From Monocercomonoides exilis PA203 (taxonomy: Eukaryota; Protista; Preaxostyla), in contig LSRY02000040.1 of NCBI GenBank assembly GCA_001643675.2, forward strand, positions 868,001 through 932,000: a stretch of 64,000 nucleotides of DNA, read 5' to 3'. A model generated the notes under the pieces. That model was not told the origin of the DNA. It did not search any database and saw only the letters and a program-made list of their open reading frames with translations. The first letter of the stretch is position 1, and the number at the start of each line of letters is the position of its first letter. This document shows positions 3,628 through 48,189 of this stretch, piece by piece. The translations under genes were made by a program, and so were the position numbers.

Positions 3628-3670
3628 AGACCTGTGCGACACGACAAGCGATTTTTTGTTGCTGTCGGTC
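3628..3670. repeat. 43-bp GC-rich dispersed motif, copy 1, followed by an A-tract
   Basis: agacctgtgcgacacgacaagcgattttttgttgctgtcggtc matches 42249-42291 at 38/43 positions. Confidence 0.85.
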
Positions 3671-3724
3671 ACCAAAAAAAAAAAAAGAAAAGAAAAGAAA
3701 AAAGAAAGAAAAAAATGAAAAAAA

Positions 3725-25194: not shown

Positions 25195-26388
25195 ATGGAA
25201 AAAAAGGTGTCTGGCAAGCCGAAAAGCATCGAGCAGCGTAAGCAGCTGTACAGCCTGGATGGGATCCGCGGGATATGCGGGATATGTGTTGTGTTCTACC
25301 ACCTGGTGGGAACTATATACCATTACCAGCCGTACACGAAGATTGTGAATCACGGATACTTGATTGTGGACTTTTTCTATTTGATCACCGGGTTTGTGTT
25401 GGGGTATGCGTACGACAAAAAGAAAACGTCGCTGTCAGCCTGGAGCTTCGTGAAGAGGCGTTTTGTGCGGCTGCAACCACTGGTATTCCTCACTTCGCTG
25501 GTGCCAACGTTTTTCTTGCGGTACTTGAATGCACCTTCAATCGGGTGGGTGAATTACGGGGATGTTCCTGTTTTGAACAGGGTGGTACTGCTGATTTTAG
25601 CGACACTTAACATTCCAGCGCCGAAAAGTCTTGTGTACTCAGCAAAACCGTCGATGTTTCCTCTGAACCCGCCTCAATGGTTTTTGGTATATGCTTACAT
25701 TGGGAACATCCTGTACATAGCGGTGTTGAGGCATTGCAGGACGTCAGTTCTTTGTGTGTGTGCTGCAATATCCGCGTTGTGCACCGGATACATGACTTTC
25801 ACATCTGAGTTTGGGTACGTGAACGGAGGATTCCTTCTAAACGATCGGAAGATGGCGCCGTTTGGGATTGTGAGGCTAATGACACCTCTGCTGATCGGGC
25901 AGGTTATAAGCAGGGTTTATCAAAAGCAGGAAATGAAGTCGAAAGAAGAGGAAAAGAAGGGAAAGAAGAGTTCAGGGGGAATTCGATTTGCATTCTGGAT
26001 TGCGAGTGCTTGCCTAATTTCGATGAGCAAAGTTCCGTATCTACGCAAGGAGGGGGAAAGTGCATATAGAAACGCAGCGTTTGACACATCAGCAGTGACG
26101 ATTATTGAACCACTGATATTGATGGTGATCATCAACGGATGCCAGCCGAGCCAATGGGAGTGCGACCTGTTCGTGTGGATGGGAAAGATGTCATATTCAC
26201 TTTTCTTGTGTCATTGCATTTTTATTGACTTTGTGTCCTGCTGGGTGGCGAACAACAATCTTTCGTTTGACTATGTGTGGATCATGTTTGTGGGGATTAT
26301 TGTGTTGAGTGTTGTTCTTGCGCATTTCTACGAGATTTACTTCAACGAACCTGTACAGAAGTGGATTTCGGTGCATCTTCGTGTGTAG
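25195..26388 (+). CDS. Acyltransferase-3 (OafA/YrhL-like) membrane O-acyltransferase, 397 aa, probably of bacterial origin
   Basis: Motifs SLDGIRG..VVFYH, NHGYLIVDFFYLITGFVLGYAYD, FVKRRFVRLQP, MFPLNPPQWFL, GKMSYSLFLCH. Multiple transmembrane segments, no introns, raised GC. Confidence 0.92.
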   Translation: MEKKVSGKPKSIEQRKQLYSLDGIRGICGICVVFYHLVGTIYHYQPYTKIVNHGYLIVDFFYLITGFVLGYAYDKKKTSLSAWSFVKRRFVRLQPLVFLTSLVPTFFLRYLNAPSIGWVNYGDVPVLNRVVLLILATLNIPAPKSLVYSAKPSMFPLNPPQWFLVYAYIGNILYIAVLRHCRTSVLCVCAAISALCTGYMTFTSEFGYVNGGFLLNDRKMAPFGIVRLMTPLLIGQVISRVYQKQEMKSKEEEKKGKKSSGGIRFAFWIASACLISMSKVPYLRKEGESAYRNAAFDTSAVTIIEPLILMVIINGCQPSQWECDLFVWMGKMSYSLFLCHCIFIDFVSCWVANNNLSFDYVWIMFVGIIVLSVVLAHFYEIYFNEPVQKWISVHLRV

Positions 26389-27104: not shown

Positions 27105-30100
27105 TCAAAACTGATTTAATGAATCCAAATCTCTTTTAAACGAAAGAAAACAGGAACAAAACCTATCAAACGAAAAGAGAGACGAAACATTAATCATTTC
27201 CACTAATTCACTTGCGGATTCTGGAATGGCTTGAGAAAATGATTGCGAACGAGTGTCATTGGCCAGTTGTAATCCACCAAATGAAAGACATTTGCTCAAA
27301 TTGTTCGATTTGAAGCTATCAGTTTCTTTCTCATTTGACGAACAAGCTTCTGCCACTCTATCTATCTCATTCACACTCATGTGTACTTTTCCATTCTTTT
27401 TCTTTCTTCTCAGCTTTCTCTTTGCTTCTGAATCCACGTGATTCCGTTTTTGCCGCATTAACATGATGTCCAAATGCATAATCTTCTTTTCTTCCATTTT
27501 TAAAGCTTCAAATACTTTTTTCTTTCTTTTTTCTTCATTTTCAAACTTCTGAAAAGATAAAAGCAGCACAAACATGAAAAGCTCAGAGAAAGAAGGGAAA
27601 AGAAGATGGTGAAAGAAACTGTGCGAAGAAAACGAAGAAAAGGAAGATAATGACGAAAGACGAGATGAAAAAGAATCCTTCAAAGAATTCCGAGTGAAGG
27701 TGAAAGAGGAAGGAGAAGGAGGCAGTTGATGAATGCTGAATGGATACAAGGCAGACAGCTTCACAGGAAACTTGTTTGTTTGCAACAGCCCCAAACACGA
27801 TTTGTTAGAAGAGAAGGAAGAAGAAGAAGAAGAAGAAGAAGAATTAGCAGAAAATTGATCGAAACAGCATGAAGAGAAATAATCTTTATGTTGAAAAGCA
27901 GAAAATTCACCATACGATTGACAATGCTCAGTTTTATTGCACTTTGATGAAACCAATTTTGAGGCTATTTCTCTTGCTGAAGAGTCAGAAAGAGAGCGGT
28001 TGTGATAGCAACAATGATGATATCTGTGACAATATGTGTTAATGCATTGCTCATTAACATTAACATTGGTGATCTGCTTGTTGCTGTTTGATGAAGAGGC
28101 GGACAAAGGCAATGAAGAAGACAACGATTGCTGCGGAGAATGAATGAACGGTGGGGAATTGCAAGAAGAGGCAGATGGGAAGAAGCTTCGATATTTCGAA
28201 GAAGTTGAAGAAGAAGACAGATTTATCATCAAACTTTTTGGGCGAGCAGAAAGAGCTGAAGAAGCAGCAGGGGTATTTGAAGAAGGAATGAAAGAAGAAA
28301 CAGCCGACAGATTTGAAGAAGCCAATGAAACCGAATAGCGCTTCATTGGCGAATCAACAGCTGAAGAGTTGTTCCTCCTCTTGTTCGCATTGCTGGCATT
28401 TTCTGCAATGAAAGAGCGTCTCATTGAACTGCACTCACGGCAATGGCATCTGATTCCAGAAAGAAACATGGAAAGCGGGTGCGAAAGAGAGGAAAGCGAG
28501 GAAAGAGAGAAAGAAGAAGGAGAAGGATGAAGAGAAAGAGGGATCGGAGGAAGATGCAGAGCAGAGGATAGAGAATTGTCGTTCGAAAAAGACGGGGAGA
28601 GAGAAGAAACAGAAGAAGAAGAAGAAGAAACTTCTTTCTCTATTGGACTGATCGGATCATTCAAACGCGGAGGCGGAGGAATGATTCCAAGTTCAGATGC
28701 ACTTTTGTGAGAGGAAGAAGAAAAATGAGAAGGAGGAGGAGGAGGAGAAGAAGAAGAGCTGAAATAACCAGAAAGAGTGTTTGGCGGAGAATCCAACAGA
28801 TTTGGAGAAGAAGGATGCATTGCGTGGTTGCTGGATTCTTCATCACTAACATCAGACTCTGCAGTTGTGTGCTTGCTTTCTTCACCACTTTTTTCGCTTT
28901 CCTCAGACGAACAATGCTTATTTGACTCAAATGTATCACAAGTGCAACAATCGTTCTCTTCGTCCTTCCCTTCTTTCTCCTTTTTCTCACTTTTTTCCTT
29001 CGCTTTTCCAGATGCTTCTTTGCACTTCTCAGCATTCGCTGCCTTCTTTCTTGCCTCTCCCCATCCATCGCTGGAGGCTCCTCCTCTCCCAAATCCATAC
29101 ACTCCCTTCGCAAATGTCACTGTCTCATCGTTCAGCTCGTTCTTCACCACGAACAAATCCTTCAAATTCTGCTCATACAAAAGCAGGTCGCACTCATCTT
29201 CTCTCAGCCTTTGCAGAAGCAGAGTGTCGATTGAGGCAGAGGCAACAGGAAGAAGAAGAGAGAGGAGAAGAGGAGGAAGCGAGGAGGAATAAGGAGAAGA
29301 TGAAGGAAATGAAGAATATGAAGAAGATGAGAAAGGGGAGGAAGGAGAAGATAATGAAGATAAGTTTTGATCATTCACAAAAGACAAATTGCACAAGTTG
29401 GATGATTGCTCTGAAGAATAATTTGGAGAAGAAGAAGAAGAAGAAGAAGAACTTTGAAAAGATGAATTTCTTTCTGAATAAATCGGACAAAAGTTGCATT
29501 TCCCCCCCAATTCTGAATGAAAAATTAAACATGGCTCAGATTTCGATTTGCAAAGTGCATATTTCTTTGAGCAAAAAGAAGAACATTTTGAACTATCACA
29601 ACTGCTTTTGGCTTCGGCATCAATATCATCCAGTTGCTTCTCATTTTCATTGATGGTAAATGAGTTTCCTTTATTTGTTTCTCTTTCTCCTTCTTTTTCT
29701 CCTTCTTTTTCTTTTTCTTTTTCTTTTTCTTTTTCTTTTTCTCTTTCTCTTTTTCTTTCCAACTCCTTCTGTCTTCTAAGGAACAAGTGCCAATCCATCA
29801 GAAATGCCTCTTCGTTTGCGGGTGCGCAAAGATAAACAGCAGAAAAAGAGAGAACGAGAAGAAGAGGGCAACAAGAAGACTTGGCAATCGACACGACAGG
29901 AAGAATAAGCAGAACAGAGGAAAATTCTGTTGGAGAAGGATTGTTGTTATTGCTGGAAGAAGAAGAAGAAGGAAGAGAGAAAGAAGAAGGAGAAGGAGAA
30001 GGAGAAGAGGAAAAAGAAGAAGGATGAGAAGATTTCAAAGCACTGTTACTGCTATTTATGCATCCCGTTTTATTATCATTTCTTTGCAAATTTATTCCAG

Positions 30101-33100
30101 CATATTTTTCCCACAATTTCTGATGAGAAGAATGTGTCTTTTTCAGCAAATTCTTCCACATTCCAACATTTTCATTGAATTTGACAGAAAACTCATTCAA
30201 ATTCTCTCTTTCGCCAAATTCTATTTTGTGATTTTCTTTCTCTTTAACCATCTTTATTGTATCATAATCTTTATTTCCAGTGTTATCTTCTTCTTTCTGA
30301 ACACATTTTCTTTCTCTTTCATTCTTCTCTTCCTTCATTTCTCCTTTTTCTTCATTTTCTTCCTTAACTTCTCCTTCTCTCTCTTCTTCTTCTCCTTCTT
30401 CTCCTTCCCTCTCAATCCATCTAAACACTCCCAATTCCACACAAGCAGAATGAACCAGACACAATTTGTGTGCAACACACTGCAATGTTTCTATCTCATT
30501 CATTGGCAGATGATGAGACAAGGGAAGAGAAGGAACTCTCACACGAGAAGAGGAAGAGGAAGAATAAGAAGAGGAAGGAGAAGGAGAGAAAGGAGAAGGA
30601 GAAGAAAAGGAAGAAGAAGAAGAAAGAGAAGATCCCAAATGAGAGCGATATTTTGAGCTTTTCTTTTGCGAGTTGAAAAGAGAGAAGCGTCTGACCAAAG
30701 GAGAATGAGAGGAAGTGGGAGAGATTGGAGGAAGAGCAGAAGAAGAGGAAGAAGAATGCAAAGAAGAAGAAGAAGAAGAAGGAGAAAAGGAGGAATAGGA
30801 TGAAGAAAGAGAAGAAGAAGAAGAGGAAGAAGAAGAGGAGGAGGATGAAGCAGACGATGCTGCTAAGTTAGAAGAAGAGGAATACAAAGAATTTGACCGA
30901 ACAGTGAGATTTCTGGGTTTAGGAGAGGCAAATGAAAGAGAAGAAAGAGAAGAAGAAGAAGATGATGATGATGAAAGGGGAGAAGAAGAATAAGAATAAG
31001 AAGAGGAAGAGGAAGAAGAAGAAGAAGGGAACAAAATATGGTTGGAAGCGTTTAATGTTTGTGGAGAAGGCAAAAAGGGGAATTTCAGAGCAGGACAAAC
31101 ACGATGTCTTCTGAGGAGAGTGGGAAGAGAAAGAAAAGAAGAAGAAAGAGATAAATTAGAAGAAAAAGAAGAAGATGATGATGAAGGAGAAAAGAAGGAA
31201 GTGAAAGAAGAAGAAGAAGATGATGAAGAAGAAATTGGATGTTTTAATAATATTTCTGCAGTATTCACAATCAAAGAAGAAGAAGAAGAAGAAGATGATG
31301 ACGAAGTCTGAAGAAGAGAAGGAGAAAGCGAAGGAATGCAAGAATATGAAGAAGAACGTTCATCAACAAGGAGAGCAGCAACAAAAATGGATTTTTCTGT
31401 TTCTTCGCCATTTTTCGGAGATTTTGGAGATTTTTGAGAATTTTTTGAGTTTTGAGGGTTTTTTCTGTTTGTTTGTGTTTTGATGGAAGAAGAAGACAAA
31501 GAAGAAAGAGAAGAAAGAGAAAAGGAAGGAGAAGAAGAAGAAGAGGAAGAAGAAGGGAAAGAAGAAGAGAAAGAAGAAGGCGAAATAGGAGAAGGAGAAG
31601 GAGAAGGAGAAGAGGAAGAAGAGGAAGAGAAAGAATTGCAAAGAGGAGAAGGAGGAGATTCATTTTCAGAGAAGGAAGAATTATTCACATTGTTATTATC
31701 ATGATGATCAAAAGGAGAAGAGGAAGAAGAAGAGGAAGGAGAAGGGGAAGAAGAGGAAGAAGAAGAATGAGAAGAAGAAGACAAAGTTGAATGATGAGGA
31801 GGAGGTTGAGGGCTTAACACTTGAACAGAAGAATACAGAAGCTCAGGAATAGAAGAAGAAGAAGAAGAAGAAGAAAGAGAAGAAGAAGAAAGAGAAAGAG
31901 AGAGAGGAGGATCCAAACGAGGAGAAGAGACGAGAGGATTCGAAAGAGAGAGAGAAAGAGGAGGAGGAGGAGAAATTGAACGGGAAGGATTTTCTGAAGA
32001 AGAAGAAGATGATGATGATGAAGGAGGAGAAGGAGAAGGAGAAGGAGAGGGAGAAGGAGAAGAAGAAGAATTTACAGGAGAAGAAGATGAAGAGGACAAT
32101 GATGAATCAAGAGAAGATGAGGAAGCAGAAGATGGAGGAGGAGGAGGAGGAGGAGGAGGAGAAGAAGAAGAATCAAAAGGAGATTTTGATGCTAATAAAG
32201 AAATATTATTCATTTGTTGTTTTTTGTTTGTTTTTTCATCTGAAACAGAATTTTCTTTGAAAGTTGAATGGAATGAAAAGTCCTTCACAACAGAACGAAT
32301 CAGAATGGGGCGAAGATCCAATGAAAAAGAAGAGGAAGAGGAAGAGGAAGAGAGAGAAGAAAGAGAAGAAGAAGAAGTTGAAGGAGAAGAAAAGGAAGAA
32401 GAAGAAGAAGAAGTTAGAAAAGAAGAAGAAAGAGGAAGAAGAAAAGTAGGTTGATTAAGAATGACATCGAGATCTTCCTGAGGAAAGATAGGTGAATGGA
32501 ATCTTTGAGCCATCGAGAAAGCAGAAGAAGAGGGAAAAGAAGAGGAAGAGGAGGAAGAAGAAGAAGAAAGAGAAGAAGAATTGTTTTGAGTGAAGATGAA
32601 ATCAAAAGAAAGAAGAGAAGTGAAAAACGGTTCGAAAGGATTGTTGTGTGCGTGATGGACGATGGAATGAGAGGAAGAGGAAGAGGAAGAAGAAGAAGAG
32701 AAGGAAGAAGAGGAATTTGAGGAAGAAGGAGAGGAAGAAAAAGAAGGAAGGGAAGATTTCATTGGTAAAATATCAACATTTTTTTGTTTTGTTGTTTGAG
32801 AAGAATGAATTGTGATTGAGTGTTTTCTATCAGAACTTGTCAAATCGTTATTTTCTGTTTTAACTTTGTCTTTTGATATTTCTTTCTTCTTTTCTTCTTT
32901 CTTTTCTTCTTCCCATTCCTCCTTCATCTCATTTCTTCCTCCTCTTCCTCCTCCTTCTCTTCCTTCTTTCTCTTTTTCTTTTTCTTTTTCTTTCTCCTTC
33001 TCCTTCTCTTTCTCCTTCTCCTTTTCTTTTGTTTCTCTTCTAATCATCTCGTATTCCTTGTCTGATGTTTGTTTCAGTGCAATTTCAGAGATAAACCGAA

Positions 33101-36100
33101 CAGGATCGAGAAAAGCAGAAAACAAAGACAAAAGAGGCAGAAGAAGATGAGAAAGAGAAATGGAATGGAACCAATTGAGATGGAGAGGAGGAGATGGAAA
33201 GGGGGAAGAGGAAGAAGAAAGAGAAGAGGAAGAAAGAGAAAAGGAAGAAGAAGAGGAAGAAGAAGAGGAGGGAAATGAAATTGGAGAAGAAGCTAAATTG
33301 GATGATGATGACGATGTGATTGATGAATTGACAGACGAAGATGATGAAATACATACGCTATTTATAGACTGAGAAGAAGAAGAAGAAGAAGAAGAAAGAG
33401 AAGAAAAAGAATTTAATGGAGTAGGAGAGGAGGAGGAAGAAGAAGGAGAACTTATAAATATTCCCGAATTCTCCTTCTTTTTCTTCCTCAAATCCTTCCT
33501 TTTTTGCTGCCTCAAAGCCAAAAGCGAGAAAAGCGAGGCGAAAGAAGAGCGAAGCTGAACAACAGAAACAAGAACTGACAGAGCGCTGTCAATTGAAATG
33601 ACACATGTCAAATCTCGCGAGCAGCGGAATTTCCGGGTGCGGCGATTTTTGACATGAGAATGATAACGGTGATGATGAAAATGAATGGGAGGAGAAGAAG
33701 GAGAGGAAGAGGAAGAGGAAGAAGAGGAGGAAGAAGAGGAGGAAGAAGAGGAAGAACAAGAAGAAGAACAAGAACAAGAGGAAGAAAATTCTTTGTTTTG
33801 TGGTGAAGGTGATTGTGAATGAATATTAGTTGGAGAAGGAGAAGAAGAATTAGAAGGGGAAGGGGAAGGCGAAGGAGAAGATGATAATGATGAGAAAGAA
33901 GAAGAACGAATTGAATGAGAAGAGGAAGAAGAGGAAGGGGAAGAAGAAGAAGAATGAGAAGAAGAAGAAGAAGAATGAGCACAGAGGAAAGCAATTGACT
34001 GAAGAAGACTTTTTGTGGTGGAATGAACAGAAAATTGGAGATAATCGAGAATTTCGTCTATCCAAAAGGGATTGTATTCGAATGAGAGGAGAGAAAGAGA
34101 AGAAGAAGGAGAAGAAGGAGAGGAAGAAGAGGAAGAAGAGGAAGGAGGAGGAGGAGAAGAAGAAGAAGAAGAAGAAGGAGGAGGAGGAGAAAGAGAAGAA
34201 TTATTTGGTTTGGTTGGATTGGAAGAAGGATTCATTTTGGAGTTGGTAAATGAAGGAGAAGGAGAAGGAGAAGAAAAAGTTAAACATGATTGTGAAAGAG
34301 AAGAAGAAGAAGAAGAAGAAAACGAAGATGATAATGAAGAAGAAGAATCCAAACAACTCTTTTTAATTATATAATTTCCCTTTTCCAATGTTTTCATTTC
34401 CAAATGAGGAGAAAGAAGAGAAGGAGGAAGAGAAGAGAAATAGACAGAAGAAGAAGGAATATCCACAAACACTCTTGGAAACTCATCCTGAATGAATGAG
34501 GAAAGAGGAAGAGAAGAAGAAGAAGAGAGAAAGGAAGAAGATGAAAGAGAAGAAGAAGAGGAAGGCGAAGAAGAAGATGTTTTGTCCAAAATGAAAGAAG
34601 GAATAGAATTCATCAACAGATTCCGCGAACCAGAATCGAGTGAAGATTTGCTATTATGACTAGAATTTGTATTTGTATTTGAATTAAAATTTAAATGAGA
34701 AGAAAAAGAAGAAGAGGGAGAAGAAGAAGAAGATGTTGATGATGAAGGAGAAGGGAGATAAGAAGAAGCAAAAGCAGAAGAAGAAGAGGAACGAGGAGAA
34801 AAAGAATATGAACGCATTCGAAATTTCATTTCTTTTTCGGTTGAAATTGAATTTTGATGAGAAGAAGAAAGAATCACAGAAGAAGAAGCCAAAGCAAAAG
34901 GATTGGATGAATGAAGAGAAGGAGGAGGAGGAGGAGGAGAAAGAGGAGGAGAAAGAGAAGAAGAAAGTGAAGAAGAAAGAGAAGAAGGGGGAAAATGAGA
35001 AGAGAGAGAAAAAGAATGATCGGAAGAATTGATAGAAGGAGAAGAAGAGGAAGAAGAAGAGGAATGAATTAATGGATTGCTTTGAGTATTAAAAGATAAT
35101 TTCATCGAAGAAGAAGAAGAGGGGGTGGTGGTGGAGGAAGAGGAAGAAGAAGAAACAGAAGAATTTTTTCCATTGAAATGGAGTGGATGAGAAACAGAAA
35201 TGAGATGAAAGAAAGAAGAAGACAAATCTTCAGAAGGAGGAAGAAGAGAAGGCGAAGAAGAAGATAATGATGAAGAGGAAGAGAAAGAAGAAGAAGGTTT
35301 ATTGAAAAGAGAAAAAACCGAAGAAAGTGAATAAGATGCAGGCATTTCAGAGAAAGTCAGAAGAAGCGAATTTTGAAGAGGAGGAAGCAAAAGATGAGAA
35401 GAAGAATAAGGAGAAGGAGAAGAGGAAGAGAAAGAAGAGAAAGAAGAAGAGAAATAAGAGGAAGAAGTTAGAGAAGAAAGAGAAGAAGAGGCAATTAAAT
35501 CAGAAGAGAAAGGAAGAGAAGGAGGAGGAATTGGAATGGAAGAGGAAGAAGAGGAAGAGGAAGATGAATGCTTTGTTGAAGAAGAATTATCAATTGAAGA
35601 AGAAGAAGAAGAAGAAGAAGAAGGTTTATGCGATGATTCAGAAGGTAATGTTTCCGATTCAATAGCAGAAAGTATAGAAGAAGAGGAGGAGGAGAAAAAA
35701 GAAGAAGGAGAAGGAGAAGGAGAAGGAAGAGAAGAAGGAAGAGAAATAATGTTTGCAATGTTATTTGATGAATTATCTGATTCGTTTGCTTTTTGATTAA
35801 TTTCGTCTTTCTCTTTTTTCGTTTCTTTTTCTTTTTCTTTTTCTTCTTTTGAATTTTCATCTTCCTCTTCCTCTTCAATCTTTTCATCATCATCTTCATC
35901 AACATCATCTTCTTCATCTCTTTCTCTTTCATCTTCTTTTTCTCTTTCACAATCTTCTTCTTCTCCTTCTCCTTCTCTTCCTCTTTCCTCTCTCACAATC
36001 AAAGGCAACACTCCAACTTCTTCCAGAAATGAGAAGGGAACATTTGGATTGGTGCAAATGGCATACAAAAAAATCAATGTTTCATTGGAAAGCGATTCAC

Positions 36101-39100
36101 AAGCAGAAAATTCTTCTTCTCTTTCTCTTTCTCTTTCTCTTTCCCTTTCCCTTTCTTCTCTTTTTAATTCTTCTTCTTCTTCTTCCTCCTCTTCTTCTTT
36201 TCTCCTTTTTACTTCATTTTCTTTTGATAACCTTTGAAATATTTTTTCGCTTTTCTCTTTTTCTTCTTTTCTTTCTCTCTCTTCCGCTGCCTCTTCTTCG
36301 TTTTCTTCTTCCTCCTCCTCCTCTTCTCCTTCTTCTCCTTCATTTTCATCTTCTTCCTCTTCTTCCTCTTCCCCTTCTTCTTCTTCTTCTTCGTTCTTGT
36401 ATTTGTTTTCATTTTCTTCATTTTCCTTCTCCTCATCATTATCTTTATCATCATCATCATCTTCTTCTTCTTCTTCGTTTTCTTCTCTCTCTTCCTCTTC
36501 TTCTTCCTCCTCTTCCTCCTCTTCTTCTTCTTCTCCCCCAAATCTTCCTCTTTCTTTGCATCTCAAACATTTCCTCAGCAAAATCTGAAGAAAATTGACT
36601 TGTGAATGTTTTTCGATCGTTTTTGCGAAGAATTCTCTTTCGACTTCGTTCATTTTCGAAGAAGACGATGAAGAAAATGAATGTTTTTCGTTTTCTTTGC
36701 TTTTCTGTGTAAAAGAAGAAGAAGAAAATATTGAAGAATTTTGTTCTTTCTCTTCTTTTTCTTTCTTTTCTTCTTTTCTTTCATTTTCTTTCTTCTTCTT
36801 CCCTTTCTCCTTTTCGATTTTCTCCTTCATTAAACTTCTTCTTCTCCCTTCTTCTTCTCCAAGTTTGTTGAAAATCGTGCTGAGAATGTCAAATGCTTTG
36901 ATTTCAGTTGAGGTTTGAGGAGAGGCAATTGAATTGGAAAGAGAGGAATATGAATGTGTTGAGGAGTGAAATGAAGAAGAAGAAGAAGGAGGAGGAGGAG
37001 GAAGAGGAGGAGAAGGAGAAGGAGAAGAAGATGAAGAAGAAGAAGAAGAAAGAGGAGAAGAAGAAGAATTTTCTATTTCGTTTGTATTTTCATTCTTGCT
37101 CATATTAGGAGAATTACTGAATAAATTACCACTTTTATTGTCATTTCTTCTTTCAACATGTTTTGAGGCAAAACGAACAAGAAAGCGGAAGAAAGAGTTG
37201 AGCATTTCAAAAGAAAGAGGACGAATTCGATTTGAAGAAGAAAGAGAAAAAGAGGAAGAGGAAGAAGAATGTGATAATGAAGAAGAAGAATATGAAGAAG
37301 ATTTCTTTATTTTGAAAATATTTTCTTCATTTCCTTTTATTTCATCATCATCATCATAATCATCATCATCATCTTCTTCTTCTTTCCTCCTCTTCTTTTC
37401 TCTTTCATCTCCTTCACATAACATTCTTTTCTCTTTCTCCTTCTCCTTCTCCTTCTCCTTCTCCTTCTTCTCTTCCTCTTCCTCTTCTTCCTCTTCCTCT
37501 TCCTCTTTCCTTCTATTTGTTGCACATTCCATCCAGAAAGAAGGAAATAGCATCATTTGCACTAAACTTGGCAGAGTTGAGAACAAAAATGGAGAATTCA
37601 TCAGAATAAAGCCAATTTGATGAAGAAGATACAAATGAGAATCAAATATATTGATTGGAGAAAGAAGAGAAGAAGAAGAAGAAGAAGAAAGAGGAGGAGG
37701 AGGAGGAGAAGAAGAATTAAGAAATGCTGAATTCTTTGAAATTTCCTTCTTTTCCCTGTCCCCACTCCACATCATCGTTATTTCATCTTTTTCTGACAGA
37801 AAATCAGTTTTTGAGTGAGGAAGAGAAGAAAGAAAGCGATTTGGATGATTTTTAAGCCAATGAAAAAAGAAAGAAGAAGGTTGCAAAGAAGCAGGAAGAC
37901 GAAGCAAAAACAGGTTTTGCTGCGTCATTTTGAAGGGATTTTCAGACAAAAGAGATTCATTTGAAGATGATTGAGAAGAGAAAGAATGAGAATTCAATTG
38001 AATGGCATTGTTATGAGGATTAATGCTATGAGCATTAACTATTTCTGCTTTTTCTGCTTTTTCTTCTTTTTCAGTTTTTTCCTTCTTTTCTTTCTCTCCA
38101 ATTTGTTTGTTTATCATCGCATTCGCATTCCTCTTCTTCTCATTTCTATTTCTTTTTATACCTCTTCTTCTTCTTCTTCCTCTTCTCTTCTCTTCTCTCA
38201 TACTTTCAAACAAATCACTCCAAATTAAATCTTTTTCTACTTCTTTTCCTTCTTCCTCTTCTTCTTCATATTCATCATCATCATCTTCTTCTTTCTCATT
38301 GGGAAACAAACATGAATTAGAAAGCAGCATTTCTTCAATGGAATTCGTGTTGTTGCTGAATAATTCTTCAAATTTAATTTCTTTGTCACTTAAATCTTCA
38401 CAACATAAATCCATTTTGTTATCTTCTTTCTTCTCTTCTCCTTCTTCTCTAACCTTCTCCTTTTCTCCTTCTCCTTCTTCTCCTTCTCCTCTTCTTCCTC
38501 TTCCTCTTCCTCTTCCTCTTCCTCTTCTTTCTATTCTATTTGCTTTCATCCATTGAAAAATGCTTTTGTGCAAAAAATACTCCAAAAGCGCTCGTTTTGC
38601 GTCAATTCCGAAGCATTTGAGAAGAGGAGGGACATTTAGACAGGAAGAGAAAGAGGAGAGAGAAGAAGAAGAAGAAGAAGAAAGAGAAGAAGAAGAAGAA
38701 GTGAATAAAGATTGAGTGATTGGAGATGTTCGAGAATGAAATACAGAAGCAATAGGAATTGAACACAACATTGTTTGCATGTTGTTAATAGAAACATTTG
38801 TGTGTGTGGAAGAAGAAGAAGAAGAAGGAGAAAAAGAAGAAGAAAATTTTAAAGAAGAATTAGAAGAAGAAGAAGAAGAAGAAGAAGAAGATGATGATGA
38901 TAATGAGGAATTCAAAGAAGAATAAGCAACAGGATTATTAGCAAGTCCAGTGGCATAATCATAATTCACTCTTCCATCTTGGAATGTCTGCATCCAACTC
39001 AAAAGAAGAGTCAGAGGAAGAGGAAAAGAAGAAATTAAACTGTTTTCATTTTCTGTGCCATCAAAAATCAATCTTTTTCTTCTTGTTTCGCATTCAAATT

Positions 39101-42087
39101 GTTCCTTTTTTCTGCTTTTCTTTTTTTCTTTTTCGATTTGCTTTCTTTTCTTGTATGCTTCCACGTCCCAAATCGGAATTCTGTTTGAAAGTGCTTCTTC
39201 TCCTTCAATTTCAAACATCTTATTCATTTTGGCTATGAAATCTGCTTTTATCATCTTCAAATGCCTCTTCTTCTCTTTCTCTTTCTCTTTTTCTTTTTCT
39301 TCTTCTTCAACTTCTTCTTCTTCTTTTTCTTGTTTAACATTGCAATTCTTCTTCTTCTTCTTTTGTTCTTTTTGCTTCCCTTTCCCTTCTTTCTCTCCCT
39401 TCTCTTCTTTTTCTTCCTTTTCATTTTCTTTTTGGTTTTTCATCTCTTCTTCCCATTCAAACGCAATTTTCACCATTTCTTCAGGCAAAAGTTTGTCAGC
39501 AATGTTGTTTGTGACACAAAGAGGGACATAAGAGAAGGGAGGAAAAGAGAAAGAAGAAGGAGAAGGAGAAGGAGAAGAAGAAGGAGAAGGAGAAGAAGAA
39601 GGAGAAGGAGAAGCAGAAGAAGATGACGATGATAAAGATGATGATAAAGAAGAAAAAGAAGAAGAAGAAGCATCAAAATTTCCAACAGAATCAAAGAAAG
39701 AGAAAGAGCTTGCTTCGTTTTTGCAGTTTGCAGACAACACACAGCAGATGAGATGAATAACGAGAGGAGGAAGAGAAGAAGAAAGAAGGACAGAAAGAAG
39801 ATGAAGACACAAAGAAACAGGAAGAGTTGGAATGGGAATGACGCGCACATTCTGAGAGGAGGGAGAAGAAGAAGAAGAAGAAGAAGGAGAAGGAGAAGAA
39901 GGAGAAGATGATGACGACGACGACGACGATGATGATGATGAAGATACAGAAGAGGAAGAAGATGCAGAGGAAGTTGCAGTGGAAGAGGAAGTTGTTATGA
40001 GTGTATCATTATCTTCTGTTCTCTTCACCACAAATCCAATTTCATTGTGTTGGTTTGCAGCTTCAATTTCAGGTGAAAGTTTCCTCTTTTCAGCTTCTCT
40101 TGCATTCTCCTTAGATTTCTCTCTTTCTTCTTCTTCCTCTTCCTCTTCCTCTTCCTCTTCCTCTTCAGAGCTCATTCCATTGCTGTTTCTTTTGCTCTCA
40201 AATGAATTCAGCGCTGTGCTTCCACAATCATTCCCTTTCTGAATAGCTTCCTTTTGTGGATAAAATTTTCTTTCCTTCTTTTCTATTTCCATTTCTTCTT
40301 CCTCTTCTTCCTCTTCCTCTTCTTCTTCTTCTTCTTCGTATTCTCCCTCTTCATATTCGCCTTCCTCATATTCATATTCATATTCTTCATACTCTGTCAT
40401 ACTCTCTTTTTTTGTTTCATCATCAATATTTTTCTCCTCAGTTTTTTCTTCCTCTTCTTCCTCTTCTTCCTCTTCTTCCTCCTCATCCTCTTCTTCCTCC
40501 TCATCCTCTTCTTCCTCCTCATCCTCTTCCTCTTCCTCTTCCTCTTCCTCTTCCTCTTCCTCTTCCTCCTCCATCTCTTTTCTTCCTCTCTCTTTTCTTC
40601 TTCTTCTTCTTTCATTTCTCCTTTTCTCTTCAACCTCTTTTTTAGCTTCTTTCGTTTCTTTTGTTTCTTCAATTTCTCTTTCGCTTTCAATTCGCACACA
40701 TTTAGGCACAAATCTCCAGAAGCAGCGAGCAAAAGGCAGCAGAAAATGCACCAAAAGGGAGCGAGCGAGGAGAAGAGAGAGCGGAAGATAGCGGATGGAG
40801 AAGAGGTCACGCACAAACTGCACCGTCGAAATGAAGTTGGACAGAAGATAATCCAACGCAGAGGCAGAAGACGTCTGCTTGCGTGTGGCCAATGAAGTTT
40901 TCTGTTCATTAGCAGATGATGATGATGATGTTTGAGAAGAAGAAGAAGAAGAAGAAGAAGAAGAAGAAGAAGAAGAAGAAGAAGAAGAAGAAGAAGAAGA
41001 AGAAGAAGAAGAAATTCCTTGTGAATCTTTTATCCTTTTCCATTTTGGCGATGGAAATGAGACAGAAGGTGTTGGGCATGCAAAGTCGTTTTCCACGCAT
41101 TTCACAATGGCTCGCGCATTTTCGGTGATTTCTGGAGATGCCCACTGGCCGCAGCTGGACAGATACACTTCTGCATCCTCCTGCAACTTGCACTCGTTGT
41201 GCTCCGCTTTCTCGCTTCCTTCTATTCTTCCTGTTCTTCCGATTCTTTCTTTTTGATCTCTAACGCCATTTCTATCGGTTCTTTCGCTCTTTTCACTCAT
41301 CATAACAGCCATGTCAAAGCACAGGAGCATAAGATATGAGCATATTCTATCAAGAAGGGGATAATAGATCACGCGAGGATTTTTGGAGCGCTTCTCATCC
41401 TTGTTTCCTTTGAACAAAATGCGAACAATTTTTTCATTCTTCAGTTTCATCACTGTTAGAATTGTTGTCTTCACAGCTGTTTGGATAAGCGGATCTCCAT
41501 TGTTGAAGAATACCATTGCCGAATCAAAGAGAGGAAAGCGAGACTGAAAAAAGCATTATTCATATTTGAGTAATTCAAATAAATTCATACCCCAAAAAAG
41601 AACAACGGAACATTCATTTCAGTTATCTTGAATCCGAGAGATCTGATAACAGAAATGTAGTAAGAAGCAATTTCGTTGTCCTTAAATGGAAGAGGCAGCT
41701 CCAAAATTTTATTTAATCGGTTATTCGATAAAAAACAAAGCAGAGTTGCCTCACTCCTTATATTCTGAATCATGATACTAATTGATTGCAGTATTTCTGC
41801 CTTTAAGGAGTTTTTGCAGTCACAGCACAAAACTTTCTCAAATCTTGGAAGTATTTGCTTATTTAGCTCTCTTAATGGGGTTTGAAAACAAAGGCAAATT
41901 TAAATAAATGCGCAAACGTTAGCATTCCATTATCCTCATTTGTTTCTGTTTTTAATAAATGATGCGTTAAGTTCTTTAGCGCACTAATCAAGTTACTTTC
42001 CGGTAATTTTTTGTTTTGATATGTTCTTGTCAAAAGTATGCAGCATTTCCTTACTGGGTCTATAACATAATTATCGCTTTTTTTCAT
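27105..42087 (-). CDS. Giant FPL-domain (CLEC16A/TT9/GOP-1-like) protein, ~4960 aa
   Basis: join(41918..42087,41591..41870,27105..41543). Splicing restores ILQSISIMIQNI..FLSNNRLNKIL..EIASYYISVIRSL..RFPLFDSAMVFFNNGDPLIQTAVKTTILTV, the FPL signature. The remainder is S/E/K low complexity. Confidence 0.85.
40936..41013. repeat. (GAA)n microsatellite encoding poly-Ser on the minus strand
   Basis: About 26 perfect GAA units. Confidence 0.95.
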
Positions 42088-42248: not shown

Positions 42249-42291
42249 AGACCTGTGCAACACGACATGCTATGTTTTGTAGCTGTCGGTC
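42249..42291. repeat. 43-bp dispersed motif, copy 2, followed by an A-tract
   Basis: 38/43 identical to 3628-3670. Confidence 0.85.
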
Positions 42292-42705
42292 CCTTAAAAA
42301 AAAAAAAAATTCGCCTTGATTTGTTTAAGAAATATCGGTATCAATAATAATATTAATTTTATGAAAATAATTAGAATTGTCCAAGAGATATGGTATATCA
42401 GCAATAGATCTATCTCGATTAAGATCAATCAAATATATCGATTTATGTGTATCTGGTGGTAGTTATCATCTTGTATAATAAGTTTGAATAGGCAATGATA
42501 ATAAGATAGAGATCAAGGGTTGTTGCTGATACTCTTAGGGGTTTATCATGATTGGATTTTCAGTGAAGTTCTATAAAGAAGGAGTTATTGATTGGTGTAA
42601 TCGAGATATATCCATAGCTGACATACCATATCTCCAAGAAGATGAATTAGCTGAAAGATTAACTGAAAGTGTCGAAGATGGTGAATTAATGTGACAATTG
42701 ATGCG

Positions 42706-42770
42706 ATCGTTGTTGAAATCGTTGTTGAAATCGTTGGTGAAATCGTTGATGTGAGCGTGTGTGAAATCGC
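42706..42770 (+). repeat. 12-bp iteron-like repeats (TGAAATCG core x4) upstream of the small TIR gene
   Basis: atcgttgttgaaatcgttgttgaaatcgttggtgaaatcgttg...tgaaatcgc; mirrored at 46310-46374. Confidence 0.85.
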
Positions 42771-42809
42771 AAATAAAAATAATCGATTAAGTTTTTAGTT
42801 TTTGAGCAA

Positions 42810-43022
42810 ATGGGTCGGAAGAAGATATACGCTACTGTGGAAGAAGCTAAAGCGGCTCAATAGAAACAAATTAAACAGTTTTAGGAAAACCGAAAGGAAG
42901 AAACTGTGTATTACAAGGAACATGTATCTGAAAAAAAGAAGAAATTGGTCGAAATATTGAGGAGAAAGCTTATCGAAAGTGATGAGCTGTTAGATGAGTT
43001 GATGGAATATGTTGATGGTTAA
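42810..43022 (+). pseudogene. Left-arm copy of the small basic protein, with two in-frame TAG codons
   Basis: MGRKKIYATVEEAKAAQ*KQIKQF*ENRKEETVYYKEHVSEKKKKLVEILRRKLIESDELLDELMEYVDG. TAG at 42861 and 42882 replaces CAG of the right-arm copy. Confidence 0.85.
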
Positions 43023-43419
43023 TGTGAATATGTTTATTTTTGGTCGAATGCGTTTTCTTGTTTGCCTGGACAGGGATGACAGGTTGAGCTGGACAGGTGA
43101 TGTGAGTGAGTGTGTGCTGTGGAGTGGAAATATTGAGTTAAATCTCCGTGCTGGAAGTGTGGATAGGGTCATTGCTGGACCGGATTTTTTTATTTCATTT
43201 GAAAAGTGCTACCAACATACCGTTTCTTCCAACAAGGGTGTTTTTCAATCAATTTGTCATGATTTTGAGGGTTTTTGCTTGAACAATAAGTATTGTCCTT
43301 TTGCCACATTGCCACATGGATTTGTTAGTGGCACACGTTATTTGTTCGTTGGTGGCACACATCAGTTATATTGTTTTTGTATTAATGATTCCAAAAAAAC
43401 GAATATGTTTAGTTAATTT

Positions 43420-45755
43420 CCACAGAATAGTCAAGTCATCTTCATCTTCTCGTCGTTTGAGGAATTGTTCATACTCTGGCTTGAGTTTCAACACCAGATT
43501 CTGTTTTCTCTTCAACCCAATCTTTTGTGCTCACATCTGTCTTTAATTTCCAGTTGGAATGAGCGATCGCAATTGATTTCAACTGGTCTGAAACATAGTG
43601 CCTCAGAACATCTCCATCCTTCTTTGAGTTTACTGTGATGCTCCTGACAGAACACATCGATGACAGAGAGTGACGTTGCAATGATATCTTCTTTTGCCTC
43701 CGTTGTTGGAATAGCCCTTGTGTTGAAATTGGTGAAAACTTTGCTGATAAATTAACAGAGAAGTTGTTCATAGAATTCATTGTCGAAAGAGTTTGCGAAA
43801 TCCTAAAGGAATGTGAGATTGTTCTTGTATTTTGAGTTACAATCACAAACAACATATCTTCTGTCTCCAATCTCAATCTTTACTAGGTATGTGTGATTTG
43901 TCCCAAATATGAAATAAGCTACGTTCTCAGCTGTTCTTCTTGGCTAATTCTTCTCATTGATTCTGATTGTTGAATCCGTGATTATTCTCTTCTATGTTTC
44001 AAAGTTAGCTGTTCGATCATCTCCAACATTTTTCAATTCGTCGAGTACAATAAGCATTTTTCCTTCGACGATGGAGTTGAACAGTCCTGTCAGTTCTGCA
44101 ATCTCTGTCACATTCGGACATGAATATCCTGCCAACAGTTCAGCAAGTTCATTTGTCCAGGTATTCTTTCCAATACCTTGCAAACCTTTGAGAACAAGTG
44201 ATGTTTCTGTTTTTTCACCAGGATTTTGAACAATTGATGAAATCCAACAGAGGATGTATTGATAGAGTTCTTCGTTGTTGTTGGCGATAACTTCTCGTGT
44301 GAAATCGAGGAATGGTTTGATGATTTCGTCATTTTGTTCGTTTGCCATTAGATATTTAAACCCATGGAACAGAGAGAATATTCGAGAGTTTTCTGAGAAG
44401 AACTTTTCCCCATCAATCGATAGAACATGAGAGTATTGTCCGAAAGCTGTCTCAACTGTGAGAGTCTTTTTGTTATCATGGCAGAGTTTTATTGTTATGA
44501 AGAGTTCGTGCATTGCTGATTTTGTTTTGAATGTTATTGAATAACAAGAGGTGTGAATGTCAAACTCTTTCACAATGAATTCCATCCTTGCTTCAACTAA
44601 CCTCAGAACTTTTGTGAGATCTTCAGCGACTTCAGACAGTGAGGAGTATTGTTTTCGATTAGCTTTTTCCCTGATTTCAGAGAATGAGAACGATGAGTTG
44701 AGATCTATTTCATGAACAGTAATCTCTCGTGGAGGTTCTTCCTTTTGCTCATTCTCTTTTCTGAAGAGTGGAATGATCACATCGTTGTAATATGTTGGAT
44801 TCCATCTCTTGACAATCTTTTGCAGAACAAATGGATGTGATTTGTGACCTCTGTATCTGTTTCTGTTTCGTTTCTCTTCATAGTGAGTGATTGCATTTGC
44901 TGTCAGAGCAACCGTCTCTCTGATTTGATTGAAAAGAAAATCAATCGATTGGTTGTCGAAACCATTAATGTTGACGAGTGAGTTGAGAGCTGCAAATAAT
45001 GGTAAAAGAGTTAACTCAGAATCAAGTGACAAAGAACCTGTATCGTTATGTATTTCAACATCTTTGAGTCCATCAACAAGAGCAAGAGCAACGATTGGAG
45101 ACGTATCTACAACACCATTTTGTGTGAGAAGATTGTGTGGTTCAGCTGCCATTGCCACTGATGTATTCTCTGTTTTGAGTTCAATACCGAAGATATCAAG
45201 AACATTCTCTAGTGATGAAAGATATCTGAGCTCTCAGTAATTATTGAGGGGAGTGTATTTTGTGATAATTCTCTTACGCTCTTTCATCTCTTTGTCTGAT
45301 GAGTCAGCTTGATCAACAAGTCTCTGTTTTCCATCTCCAATACCTGCAAAAATGTCGATATCGTACACCGAACTCGTGAACACTTTGGTTTGTGATGAAC
45401 ATTTGAGGTGATAACCACACAGCTCACAATAAATATGAAGACCACCATGAGCTGTTTGAACAAGAACGACATTTCGAGGGAGTTTCTCGAATATGGAATT
45501 CCTGATGGTTTTCATTTGTTCAGCTTGAATGGATTTGTTGATGTCAACATCAACGACACAAAGATCCTCACATTTTCTGATATTGACAGCTGTTCCAGTG
45601 TGTCGTTTGTCCTGCTTCTTGTTAGAGTATTTTTTGTGGTCCAACAAGTCAGCAATGTGATCTTTCATTCGTTCTCCCATCGTTTGCTGTTCTGTTGACA
45701 TTGAATCAATTAATTGTTGGATAAAGTTGTCAAAGTCTGTTTGGGGGTTTCTCAT
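43420..45755 (-). pseudogene. Prim-Pol (AEP superfamily primase-polymerase) fused to an SF3 (D5/NrS-1-type) helicase, ~780 codons, disrupted
   Basis: One frame from ATG 45755. AEP motifs: LCVVDVDIN, VQTAHGGLHIY, YDIDIF. Helicase motifs: Walker A GLQGIGKNT, Walker B MLIVLDE, motif C FIFGTN, Arg finger GDRRY. In-frame stops at 45234, 43992, 43944, 43803, 43752, 43512 and 43488, plus a probable terminal frameshift. Confidence 0.92.
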
Positions 45756-45972
45756 TTCATAAAAATAATAAAAAAACAAATTTTTTTTGAAACAGATTTA
45801 TTTATGAAACGTAAATTTACGGGGAAGATGACGATGAGGTTAATGTCGAACTTTGACGGGGAACAGTTAATTTTCACATTAAATGTATTTTGCCTTCTTT
45901 GCCCAGTTTGCCCGTTTGCCCACATATTTTGGAGAATGTTATTGACCCGGTGCACCCAGTGCAGGTGGAAAA

Positions 45973-46694
45973 GCTCGGAGATTTATCTCAATATTTCCCA
46001 GCCACAGCATCACTCACATTACCTGTCCAGCTTAACCTGTCCACCCTGTGCAGGCAAACAACCATTAACTTTTTCCATCAACTCATCTAACAGCTCATCA
46101 CTTTCGATAAGCTTTCTCCTCAATATCTTAATCGACTTCTTCTGTTTCTCAGTTACATGTTCGCTGTAATACTTCGTTTCTTTTCTACGTTTTTCCTGAA
46201 ACTGTTTAATTTGTTTCTGTTGAGCCGCTTTAGCTTCTTCCACAGTAGCGTATATCTTCTTCCGACCCATTTGCTCAAAAACTAAAAACTTAATCGATTA
46301 TTTTTATTTGCGATTTCACACACGCTCACATCAACGATTTCACCAACGATTTCAACAACGATTTCAACAACGATCACATCAATTGTCACATTAATTCACC
46401 ATCTTCGACACTTTCAGTTAATCTTTCAGCTAATTCATCTTCTTGGAGATATGGTATGTCAGCTATGGATATATCTCGATTACACCAATCAATAACTCCT
46501 TCTTTATAGAACTTCACTGAAAATCCAATCATGATAAACCCCTAAGAGTATCAGCAACAACCCTTGATCTCTATCTTATTATCATTGCCTATTCAAACTT
46601 ATTATACAAGATGATAACTACCACCAGATACACATAAATCGATATATTTGATTGATCTTAATCGAGATAGATCTATTGCTGATATACCATTTCT
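45973..46694 (-). repeat. Right long inverted repeat
   Basis: Mirror of 42386-43152. Confidence 0.95.
46019..46270 (-). CDS. Small basic helical protein (83 aa) encoded in the right inverted repeat; possibly DNA-binding
   Basis: Intact ORF MGRKKIYATVEEAKAAQQKQIK...; the paralogue in the left arm keeps the same frame with conservative substitutions. Confidence 0.7.
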   Translation of the reverse strand: MGRKKIYATVEEAKAAQQKQIKQFQEKRRKETKYYSEHVTEKQKKSIKILRRKLIESDELLDELMEKVNGCLPAQGGQVKLDR

Positions 46695-46699
46695 TTTTT

Positions 46700-47420
46700 G
46701 AATTTATCCCAAAGAATTTATAGAATATCGTTGATATGATTGCATATAACATGAGCTGCAGTTTCATTTTATTCCAGTCTCGTTTTCCACATCTGTTTGG
46801 GTGAGATCCAGCTCATGAAGATGTTGTTACATGAATGAAGGATAACAAATTGATCAAGGAAGAAAGAGAACAAAGAAATTTGGAATTCACAGCCATTGTT
46901 GAAGTAATTCGTAGATCAGGGACCGAATGAGAAACTTAGCTTAAAGCAATTCACAAAAAAAATGATTATATTAACAATAACTTTGTTAATATGCAAGCTT
47001 TAAATATCAGAGAGAACAGACGTGAGAAATTCAATGTTTAAAGAAGAAGGAATAAAACTTGATGCAAGACTGATAACTTTAGAGACACGCAATGAGATTG
47101 CTGTTCCATATTTATCAGAGTTTCTTTTGATTTGTCCTGCATTCGCAATTAAGACATTGTGGGATAGAGTTCAACAAGCCAACCCAAACACAAACAGTCT
47201 GCTCCTTAATACAAACACATTTGCTCCATTTAAAGCAGGAGGGAATCGGAGAATTGCCGAGGAAGCGCTGCTCAACGCAGGGAAACCAGAAACATATTCT
47301 CCATTCTCAATCATGGCAGCATCGATTTCGGCTTTGACAATGGCAGGTTTTCCTCCAGCTCAGATTACAAATGCAGATTTAGCCTCATTAATGGGCAAGG
47401 TGATTGCTATTTCAGGAGAA
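46700..47420 (+). pseudogene. Decayed DIRS-type tyrosine recombinase
   Basis: Fragments AAVSFYSSLVF, KEIWNSQPLLK*FVDQGPNEKLSLKQFTKK and ICPAFAIKTLWDRV..ALLNAGKPETYSPFSIMAASISALTMAGFPPAQI. The catalytic R and HxxR are degenerate and the Tyr segment appears deleted. Confidence 0.75.
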
Positions 47421-48189
47421 GGATTGACAAAGCAGGCACAACACGCTGAAGAAGAGGAAAAGCGAGGAAAAGAAGTGTGCAATTGTGAAAAAGCAGTGTG
47501 ACATTTGGAAAAGAAATGACAGAAACCAAGTGATAGACGACTCCCAAACAACAATGCCTTCGATGATTGAAGAACCAAAGGAAGATGAGAAAGAGGATTC
47601 AGAATATGACAAAAGGTTCATTATTCGAGAAAGAGTACAACAAAGGAAAGAAAAAATTCAGAAGGAATGGATAATATTAAAAGCTGCGGTTATGATGGAA
47701 TCAGAAACCCTCAACAAACATGTGATCTCAATAAAAGAGAAGGAATTGAATAAATTTGTTTTTTTCAAATTAAAGTCACATCAAATTATAGAAAAAAGAT
47801 TGAATGGCAATAAAACAAAAAACTGCGAGAAATGAAGGAAATAATAAAATAGAATTATATAATGATAATCAAAACAAAAGAAAGAAAACATACGATGATC
47901 AAATCTTATATTTAATCTTGGAACAACCTTATATTGCGATGGGACAATACATAAATCTGTTGGAAGAGAAAATTAAGGAGAAATTATTTTAATTTGAAAA
48001 TTATAATTTCCAAGAATAAATATATAATTAAGAAAATCATAAGATAATTAAAAAAATTAAAAAAAAAATGAATAAAAATGATTAAAAATAACGAAATTAT
48101 TTCGAAAAATTTATAATGAAATAATCAAGTTGTAATTGAATAAAAAAAAATTAACAGATAAAAAAACAATCTCCTTCCCTTCTCTCCTT

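Follow-up and report, generated by a model that had tools for sequence, protein, structure and literature searches.

We analyzed 64,000 nucleotides of the genome of Monocercomonoides exilis PA203 (contig LSRY02000040.1, positions 868,001 to 932,000 of the forward strand), here called the window and numbered from its first letter, and found in it an old copy of a dispersed 4.3-kb element. Two long inverted arms, each carrying a small basic gene, enclose a single replicase gene whose product joins a primase-polymerase of the archaeo-eukaryotic primase (AEP) type to a superfamily 3 (SF3) helicase. We observed this layout, a fixed end set against flanks that differ, diverged copies with the same two arms, and Maverick genes as neighbors of the relatives of the replicase. 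The explanation we lean toward is that the element is a reduced, self-copying Maverick/Polinton derivative that was integrated by the integrase of a helper. The element consists of the following parts.

42384..46696: whole element, 4,313 bp, an old copy of a dispersed family
42384..43152, plus strand: left terminal inverted arm, starting AGAGATATGG
45972..46696, minus strand: right terminal inverted arm, without 39 bp around the stop of the small gene
42385..42634, plus strand: terminal fold-back of the left arm, a 48-bp imperfect inverted repeat with a 155-nt loop
46446..46694, minus strand: terminal fold-back of the right arm, mirror copy
42706..42748, plus strand: 12-bp tandem repeat, 3.6 units, candidate origin repeats
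46332..46374, minus strand: 12-bp tandem repeat, mirror copy
43409..45755, minus strand: decayed Prim-Pol/SF3 helicase gene with six in-frame stops and two frameshifts in its last ~27 to 30 codons
45165..45683, minus strand: AEP primase-polymerase domain, residues 25 to 197, by structure match
43491..44735, minus strand: SF3 helicase region of the NrS-1 type, residues 341 to 755, by DUF5906, 6k9c and Foldseek
42810..43022, plus strand: small basic gene, left copy, 70 codons with two in-frame stops
46019..46270, minus strand: small basic gene, right copy, open, 83 amino acids, pI 9.7

Alignment by blastn confirmed the inverted repeats of about 720 to 770 bp that a preliminary description had drawn around one long gene. 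Positions 42383 to 43152 pair with 45972 to 46697 over 770 columns at 89.5% identity with 44 gaps, including an ungapped core of 638 nt at 96%. The arms differ unevenly, with 1 difference in the outer 470 bp (42391 to 42860), 24 substitutions in the following 160 bp, and 10 substitutions together with two gaps (39 and 5 bp) in the innermost part. The 12-bp tandem repeats reported earlier are present in each arm, and their unit is not the same in other copies of the element. Each arm tip also holds a fold-back of 250 bp that had been overlooked. In the left arm, 42385 to 42432 pair with 42588 to 42634 at 85% (blastn E = 8e-8); DNA folding of this stretch, which was picked after the stem was seen, gave a z score of -3.85 with 0 of 100 shuffles as low, and the wider 441 nt around it gave -1.84. 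The right boundary of the element was placed by symmetry, and its final 7 bp contain 2 mismatches. The 5' terminus at 42384 reads AGAGA; Polinton termini begin 5'-AG, and a match of two letters carries little weight.

The interior leaves little room for other genes. None of 12 proteins from the loci of relatives, PolB, ATPase, integrase and HNH proteins among them, matches inside the element, and no further long open reading frame (ORF) fits there, in agreement with the earlier reading that integrase, pPolB and packaging ATPase are missing. There is no ORF space between the arms for a capsid gene (capsid profiles were not searched), and Rfam returned no match.

The replicase gene can be read in one frame from 45755 to 43491 through its six in-frame stops. 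The single frame proposed in the preliminary description holds over this length, but two other frames encode the last ~27 codons, which end at 43409. The motifs proposed there for AEP and SF3 were found in the translated protein as DVD69, TAHGGLH101, DIDI132, GLQGIGKN524, LIVLDE568, GTNH618 and DRRY631, which we take to be the catalytic motifs of these enzymes. We built a structure model from a 24-row alignment (pLDDT 75.8). Residues 25 to 197 of the model matched the Prim-Pol of pRN1 ORF904 (Z score of 9.2 to 9.5, root mean square deviation of 3.7, 151 aligned residues) and that of NrS-1 (Z score of 7.6), and the Pfam Prim-Pol match was weak (2 of the 24 family members, best E of 0.059). Residues 341 to 755 matched the NrS-1 helicase region 6k9c (Z score of 24.4, root mean square deviation of 4.8, 357 aligned residues), and DUF5906 in Pfam (E = 1.6e-17), and Foldseek gave a match at E = 2e-16. 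The modeled fold shows an AEP domain fused to an SF3 helicase, which is the mark of AEP-S3H (AEP fused to a superfamily 3 helicase) Polinton-like viruses (PLVs).

We compared the locus with assembled contigs from four sequencing runs. Contig depth climbed sharply at the left end of the element and dropped at its right end. In the individual runs the replicase was 13, 20, 27 and 86 times as deep as the flanks, and the arm tips were 2.2 to 4.1 times as deep as the replicase; the 3' spacer, at 7 to 25 times flank depth, had about half the depth of the replicase or less. The left boundary is defined by this step together with loose contig ends at 42384 (7 in run X1, 3 in X2 and 6 in X4) and at 42383 (4 in X4). 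Beyond 42384 the loose-ended contigs continue into AT-rich sequence with an agreement of only 0.53 to 0.67, so the flanks differ between copies. At least three joints (43359/45878, 43371/46040 and 43414/46009) connect the 3' side of the replicase to an arm, and, at the 5' end of the replicase, diverged contigs with ~85% identity cross into an arm. Because these contigs reveal a separate unit present many times, with ends that are fixed and two arms in other copies as well, the local inverted duplication that the preliminary description had held in reserve is not upheld.

Two contigs with unusual connections were also seen. One of 7.9 kb (record 30) passes through the loop and inner stem of the fold-back (42484 to 42634) and then through 7.7 kb of other sequence, which could be a terminal segment that has flipped or a 250-bp end standing alone. 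Another joins the element end at 42385 to the repeat array (42742) of another arm on the opposite strand, which may be a nested insertion.

The copy in the window is old and dead. Its six stops correspond to about 5 to 8% substitutions per site (95% range, 2 to 17%), and the inner arms, which differ at 34 of ~250 sites (14%), are consistent with that age of decay. The outer arms, with 1 difference in 470 sites, are not (Fisher P = 1e-15 against the inner arms). At positions such as 42515, 42554, 42567, 42643 and 42833, both arms share letters that 85 to 98% of the family depth reads otherwise. The outer ~470 bp of the arms were likely homogenized after insertion by gene conversion between the arms. 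A rare subfamily would account for the shared letters but not for the contrast with the inner arms, and an assembly artifact was rejected because short-read contigs at twice single-copy depth cover 42609 to 42860 with 0 or 1 differences. We also rejected a reassigned genetic code as the source of the stops: the stops include all three types, some relatives are open, and the two checkable stops (43993 and 43805) are nearly private to this copy, with 94 to 97% of X1 depth showing another letter. A single local event, in which a fragment of a Maverick was duplicated in inverted orientation, would explain outer arms that are nearly identical beside a decayed replicase, and the lack of a target-site duplication would suit it. 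We nevertheless consider such an origin extremely improbable, since diverged copies repeat both the layout and the terminus, which largely refutes it, and the inner arms are as old as the decay of the replicase.

A small basic gene facing inward in each arm, as the preliminary description had it, is present on both sides; the right copy has 13 extra residues following the loss of its stop. Eight other proteins resemble the product at E < 0.001, and six of these align over all 70 residues at 34 to 42% identity; two long repetitive proteins were excluded from the alignment. Pfam matches were all under the cut-off, Atlas scores did not exceed 0.85, and a word-based search added none. The protein, which has no assigned family, is likely to bind DNA. 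The start of the small gene (42800 to 42895) has 2 to 4 times the depth of the arm tip in X1 and is somewhat deeper in X4; the gene may also occur in other elements.

The replicase itself ties the element to Mavericks. Searches returned 27 clusters from M. exilis, Trichomonas vaginalis (198 members), Streblomastix and metagenome proteins. Relatives in M. exilis, annotated "putative Poxvirus D5 protein," reach 84% identity over the full length, and some are fully open; the T. vaginalis cluster of 198 members (P0018) has 40% identity over 99% of the query. Five loci with relatives were recovered. Since L001 and L002 overlap and form one element, and L005 was dropped from contexts and tree because its likeness is limited to 70 residues of a bacterial Prim-Pol, they give three independent contexts. 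Four further loci were discarded because they match only the low-complexity tail of P0095. In L004 the replicase lies beside DUF4108, DNA_pol_B_2 (E = 3e-10, assigned by Pfam on the last 370 residues of the polymerase) and an A32-like ATPase; in L003, read with table 6, it lies two genes from an rve-like integrase (E = 1.8e-4, under the Pfam cut-off); and in L001/L002 a helicase-only form lies between an A32 ATPase and an HNH gene. Relatives thus stand among Maverick/Polinton genes in three of three contexts. No long inverted repeats surround the replicase in the recovered DNA, which in L003 and L004 stops close to the gene. L004 (1 to 9384) was binned with a bacterial genome but is a eukaryotic viral element of Maverick type, likely a contaminant of that bin. 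The primase-helicase and integrase genes of L003 (15 to 4079) are open only if TAA and TAG encode glutamine, a reading reported for Streblomastix elements in PMC10120064.

A replicase tree of 38 rows was made by a quick method without bootstraps, with long branches flagged and with four distant prokaryotic sequences as its root. It groups the proteins of M. exilis with those of Streblomastix in one clade (SH-aLRT 100) and places the three Maverick-context rows on other, different branches within this replicase family. A second, distant M. exilis lineage (P0027, 39% identity) falls inside the oxymonad clade and is a candidate for the helper's own gene. Together, the three contexts and the oxymonad clade mark the replicase as a known Maverick accessory gene; the sequences suggest one of Maverick origin that has long resided in oxymonads. 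PMC12289875 (Supplementary Table 5) reports a Poxvirus D5 protein in 8.6% of 1,705 class 3 T. vaginalis Mavericks and DUF4108 in 58.8%, and we infer that this D5 protein is cluster P0018. The preliminary description had taken the locus for a relic of a self-replicating plasmid or satellite. A discrete multi-copy unit was indeed found and a satellite-like life fits, but an origin apart from Polintons is not supported, the replicase being an ordinary gene among Maverick genes in all three contexts.

These same contexts would favor a different reading, in which most copies belong to longer Maverick-type elements as their end modules, the two-arm 4.3-kb form being only a small, defective subfamily. 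The shallower 3' spacer points the same way, 548 more loose ends exist besides those listed, and primase-helicase end modules adjoin the inverted repeats of PLVs as described in PMC11296320. However, the three or more contigs that link the 3' side of the replicase to an arm are single-copy, no long loose end lies 3' of the replicase among the rows listed, and the six capsid genes reported for M. exilis in the supplement rows of PMC10120064 contrast with an apparently larger number of replicase copies. We rate this reading as rather unlikely.

In the explanation we favor, a Maverick/Polinton-type virus would have lost everything except one end module. Copy-back defective genomes provide an analogy for what could have followed: the end piece, with terminal repeat and small gene, would have been copied in inverted orientation behind the replicase. 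The AEP domain, needing no terminal protein, would prime synthesis at the 12-bp repeats or the fold-back or close to them, the SF3 ring would power strand displacement from each end, and the small basic protein would bind the element ends. An rve integrase, and perhaps capsid and ATPase, would be supplied in trans by a helper Maverick. After insertion, the copy in the window would have decayed while gene conversion homogenized its outer arms. The six capsid genes in M. exilis make possible helpers available, as far as those supplement rows go. The ATPase of L004 has 482 related clusters, with no M. exilis entry among the 120 matches listed, and IMG/VR scans returned no relative of the replicase, of this ATPase, or of the 18-bp terminus.

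Several observations weigh against this explanation. The four runs all come from one sample, and contig depth is not copy number, as the method itself warns. No contig among those listed spans a whole second copy, and, given the shallower 3' spacer, some of the copies may run on into other sequence. The relatives that provide the Maverick contexts are distant (30 to 41% identity), with no oxymonad among them; L001 to L010 gave no match to the small gene; and no helper sharing the ends of the element was seen in searches that did not include the host genome assembly. The supplement parts of PMC12289875 that were searched contain no gene identifier tying P0018 to the published D5 protein. Lastly, the one locus in the window has no target-site duplication, its outer 6 bp being TGTCCA and TTTGAA, and Polinton insertions are flanked by duplications of 5 to 6 bp; however, the flanks at this locus appear rearranged, and those of other copies were visible only as a consensus. 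We also weighed a degenerate duplication of ~10 bp (GAATTGTCCA on the left and GAATTTATCCCA on the right, 3 bp from the end) and did not accept it.

The missing duplication would fit a free linear plasmid or transpoviron-like satellite that replicated outside the chromosomes and that host repair, without any integrase, joined by its intact ends into AT-rich breaks. The element has all that is needed for self-copying and nothing for integration, and fold-backs at its ends would suit a free linear satellite. Hairpin-end replication would flip terminal segments, which would be consistent with the contig that crosses the loop and inner stem, and PMC11071308 derives transpovirons and cytoplasmic plasmids from Polinton-like ancestors through loss of the structural module. 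Against this, the ends of many copies fall within 1 bp, a precision that would better suit an end-specific integrase than repair capture; a terminal hairpin joint is absent among the seven joints listed; and the loop-crossing contig is single and fits a solo or truncated end equally well. We judge a free satellite captured by repair to be unlikely. As a bolder and tentative proposal, to which we give a limited chance, the family could represent a distinct class of minimal eukaryotic replicons, Maverick-escaped AEP-SF3 satellites with fold-back ends that exist as free linear DNA, need no terminal protein, and colonize metamonad chromosomes.

Beyond the right arm lies a gene that had been overlooked.

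46697..47500, plus strand: broken tyrosine-recombinase gene outside the element, a separate lower-copy repeat abutting its right end

Part of it (47022 to 47426) had an Atlas feature score of 0.96 to eukaryotic Tyr-recombinase clusters, with no match in Pfam or the PDB; the repeat is presumably of DIRS or Crypton type. The relic begins exactly where the element ends, and primase-helicase is paired with tyrosine recombinase in PLVs (PMC11296320), so that it could be proposed as the element's own integrase. It lies outside the arms, though; the contig across the right-end junction is at single-copy depth (37.9 in X1 and 101 in X4), and the few other recombinase copies in the contigs, ~83% identical, occur only further out. 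With flanks that differ between copies at the terminus, the present data suggest that other copies have no such neighbor, and we find a recombinase belonging to the element very improbable. Apart from a 59-bp repeat the left flank is single-copy, and the right flank begins within this broken gene, so the two do not resemble the halves of a single site.

Three further features lie in the window. The 59-bp repeat occurs at 42249 to 42307 and at 3628 to 3686 (86% alike, with a poly-A end and ~2 to 10 times flank depth) and may be a short retroposon end. An open frame of 4,803 codons on the minus strand (27105 to 41516), rich in Ser and Glu runs, starts 870 bp from the left end of the element. On the plus strand, 25195 to 26388 hold an intron-free Acyl_transf_3 gene (E = 4e-27) that is GC-richer than its surroundings and possibly of bacterial origin.

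Polintons are thought to be ancestral to linear plasmids and transpovirons through loss of capsid genes, and those descendants keep a protein-primed polymerase. If our explanation is true, the element family is a parallel reduction based on a primase-polymerase, preserved in dozens of dated copies within a cultured protist where capsid-bearing elements and enzyme copies that are still open occur too. A helper-satellite relation between endogenous viruses of protists would therefore be directly testable. The family would also give a name to part of the 35% of the M. exilis genome that PMC8767320 reports as unclassified repeats. Should the class of free satellites be real, it would be a primase-helicase counterpart of transpovirons and possibly the vehicle behind the patchiness of the replicase gene among Mavericks.

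We found no description of the minimal two-arm layout in the literature searched, a weak negative because most subscription journals and Repbase were outside its coverage. The closest solved folds are those of the NrS-1 polymerase-helicase, pRN1 ORF904 and SaPI PriRep (6k9c, Z score of 24.4; 7ola, 17.6; 3m1m, 9.5). Those systems are prokaryotic, and their sequence likeness is confined to the helicase, at 23 to 31% over at most 41% of the protein among the matches listed; four sampled prokaryotic proteins form a distant outgroup in the replicase tree. Transpovirons, as presented in PMC3671162 and PMC11071308, are likewise small offshoots of the Polinton network that lack a capsid and center on a polymerase-helicase fusion. 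They carry pPolB with a superfamily 1 helicase and six to eight genes and ride with mimiviruses, whereas the element is chromosomal, has two kinds of gene, and uses an SF3 helicase with an AEP N terminus. The element does not belong to the transpovirons, to which the preliminary description had pointed; it is transpoviron-like in its logic but not in its helicase. PLVs with AEP-S3H share the AEP-SF3 fusion beside inverted repeats (PMC11071308 and PMC11296320); the element differs from them in having no ORF space for a capsid module and no tyrosine recombinase within its repeats.

Terminal inverted repeats are part of the definition of Mavericks/Polintons in PMC4405056, and the element has them. 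It is not an autonomous member, having no PolB, integrase or ATPase match and 4,313 bp against 15 to 20 kb or more. Compared with T. vaginalis Mavericks, which have 15 to 26 kb and 10 to 20 genes, it has 4.3 kb and two kinds of gene, lacks PolB, integrase and ATPase matches as well as ORF space for a capsid, and carries its small gene inside the repeat. As a nonautonomous derivative, it would have drawn its replicase from Mavericks (three of three contexts); for the small gene no Maverick counterpart was seen in L001 to L010. Its long terminal inverted repeats resemble those of the class 1 and 2 T. vaginalis Mavericks, given as 500 to 900 bp in PMC12289875. With the class 3 Mavericks of T. vaginalis and with L003 and L004, the element shares both its replicase family and its occurrence as dispersed copies in a metamonad genome.

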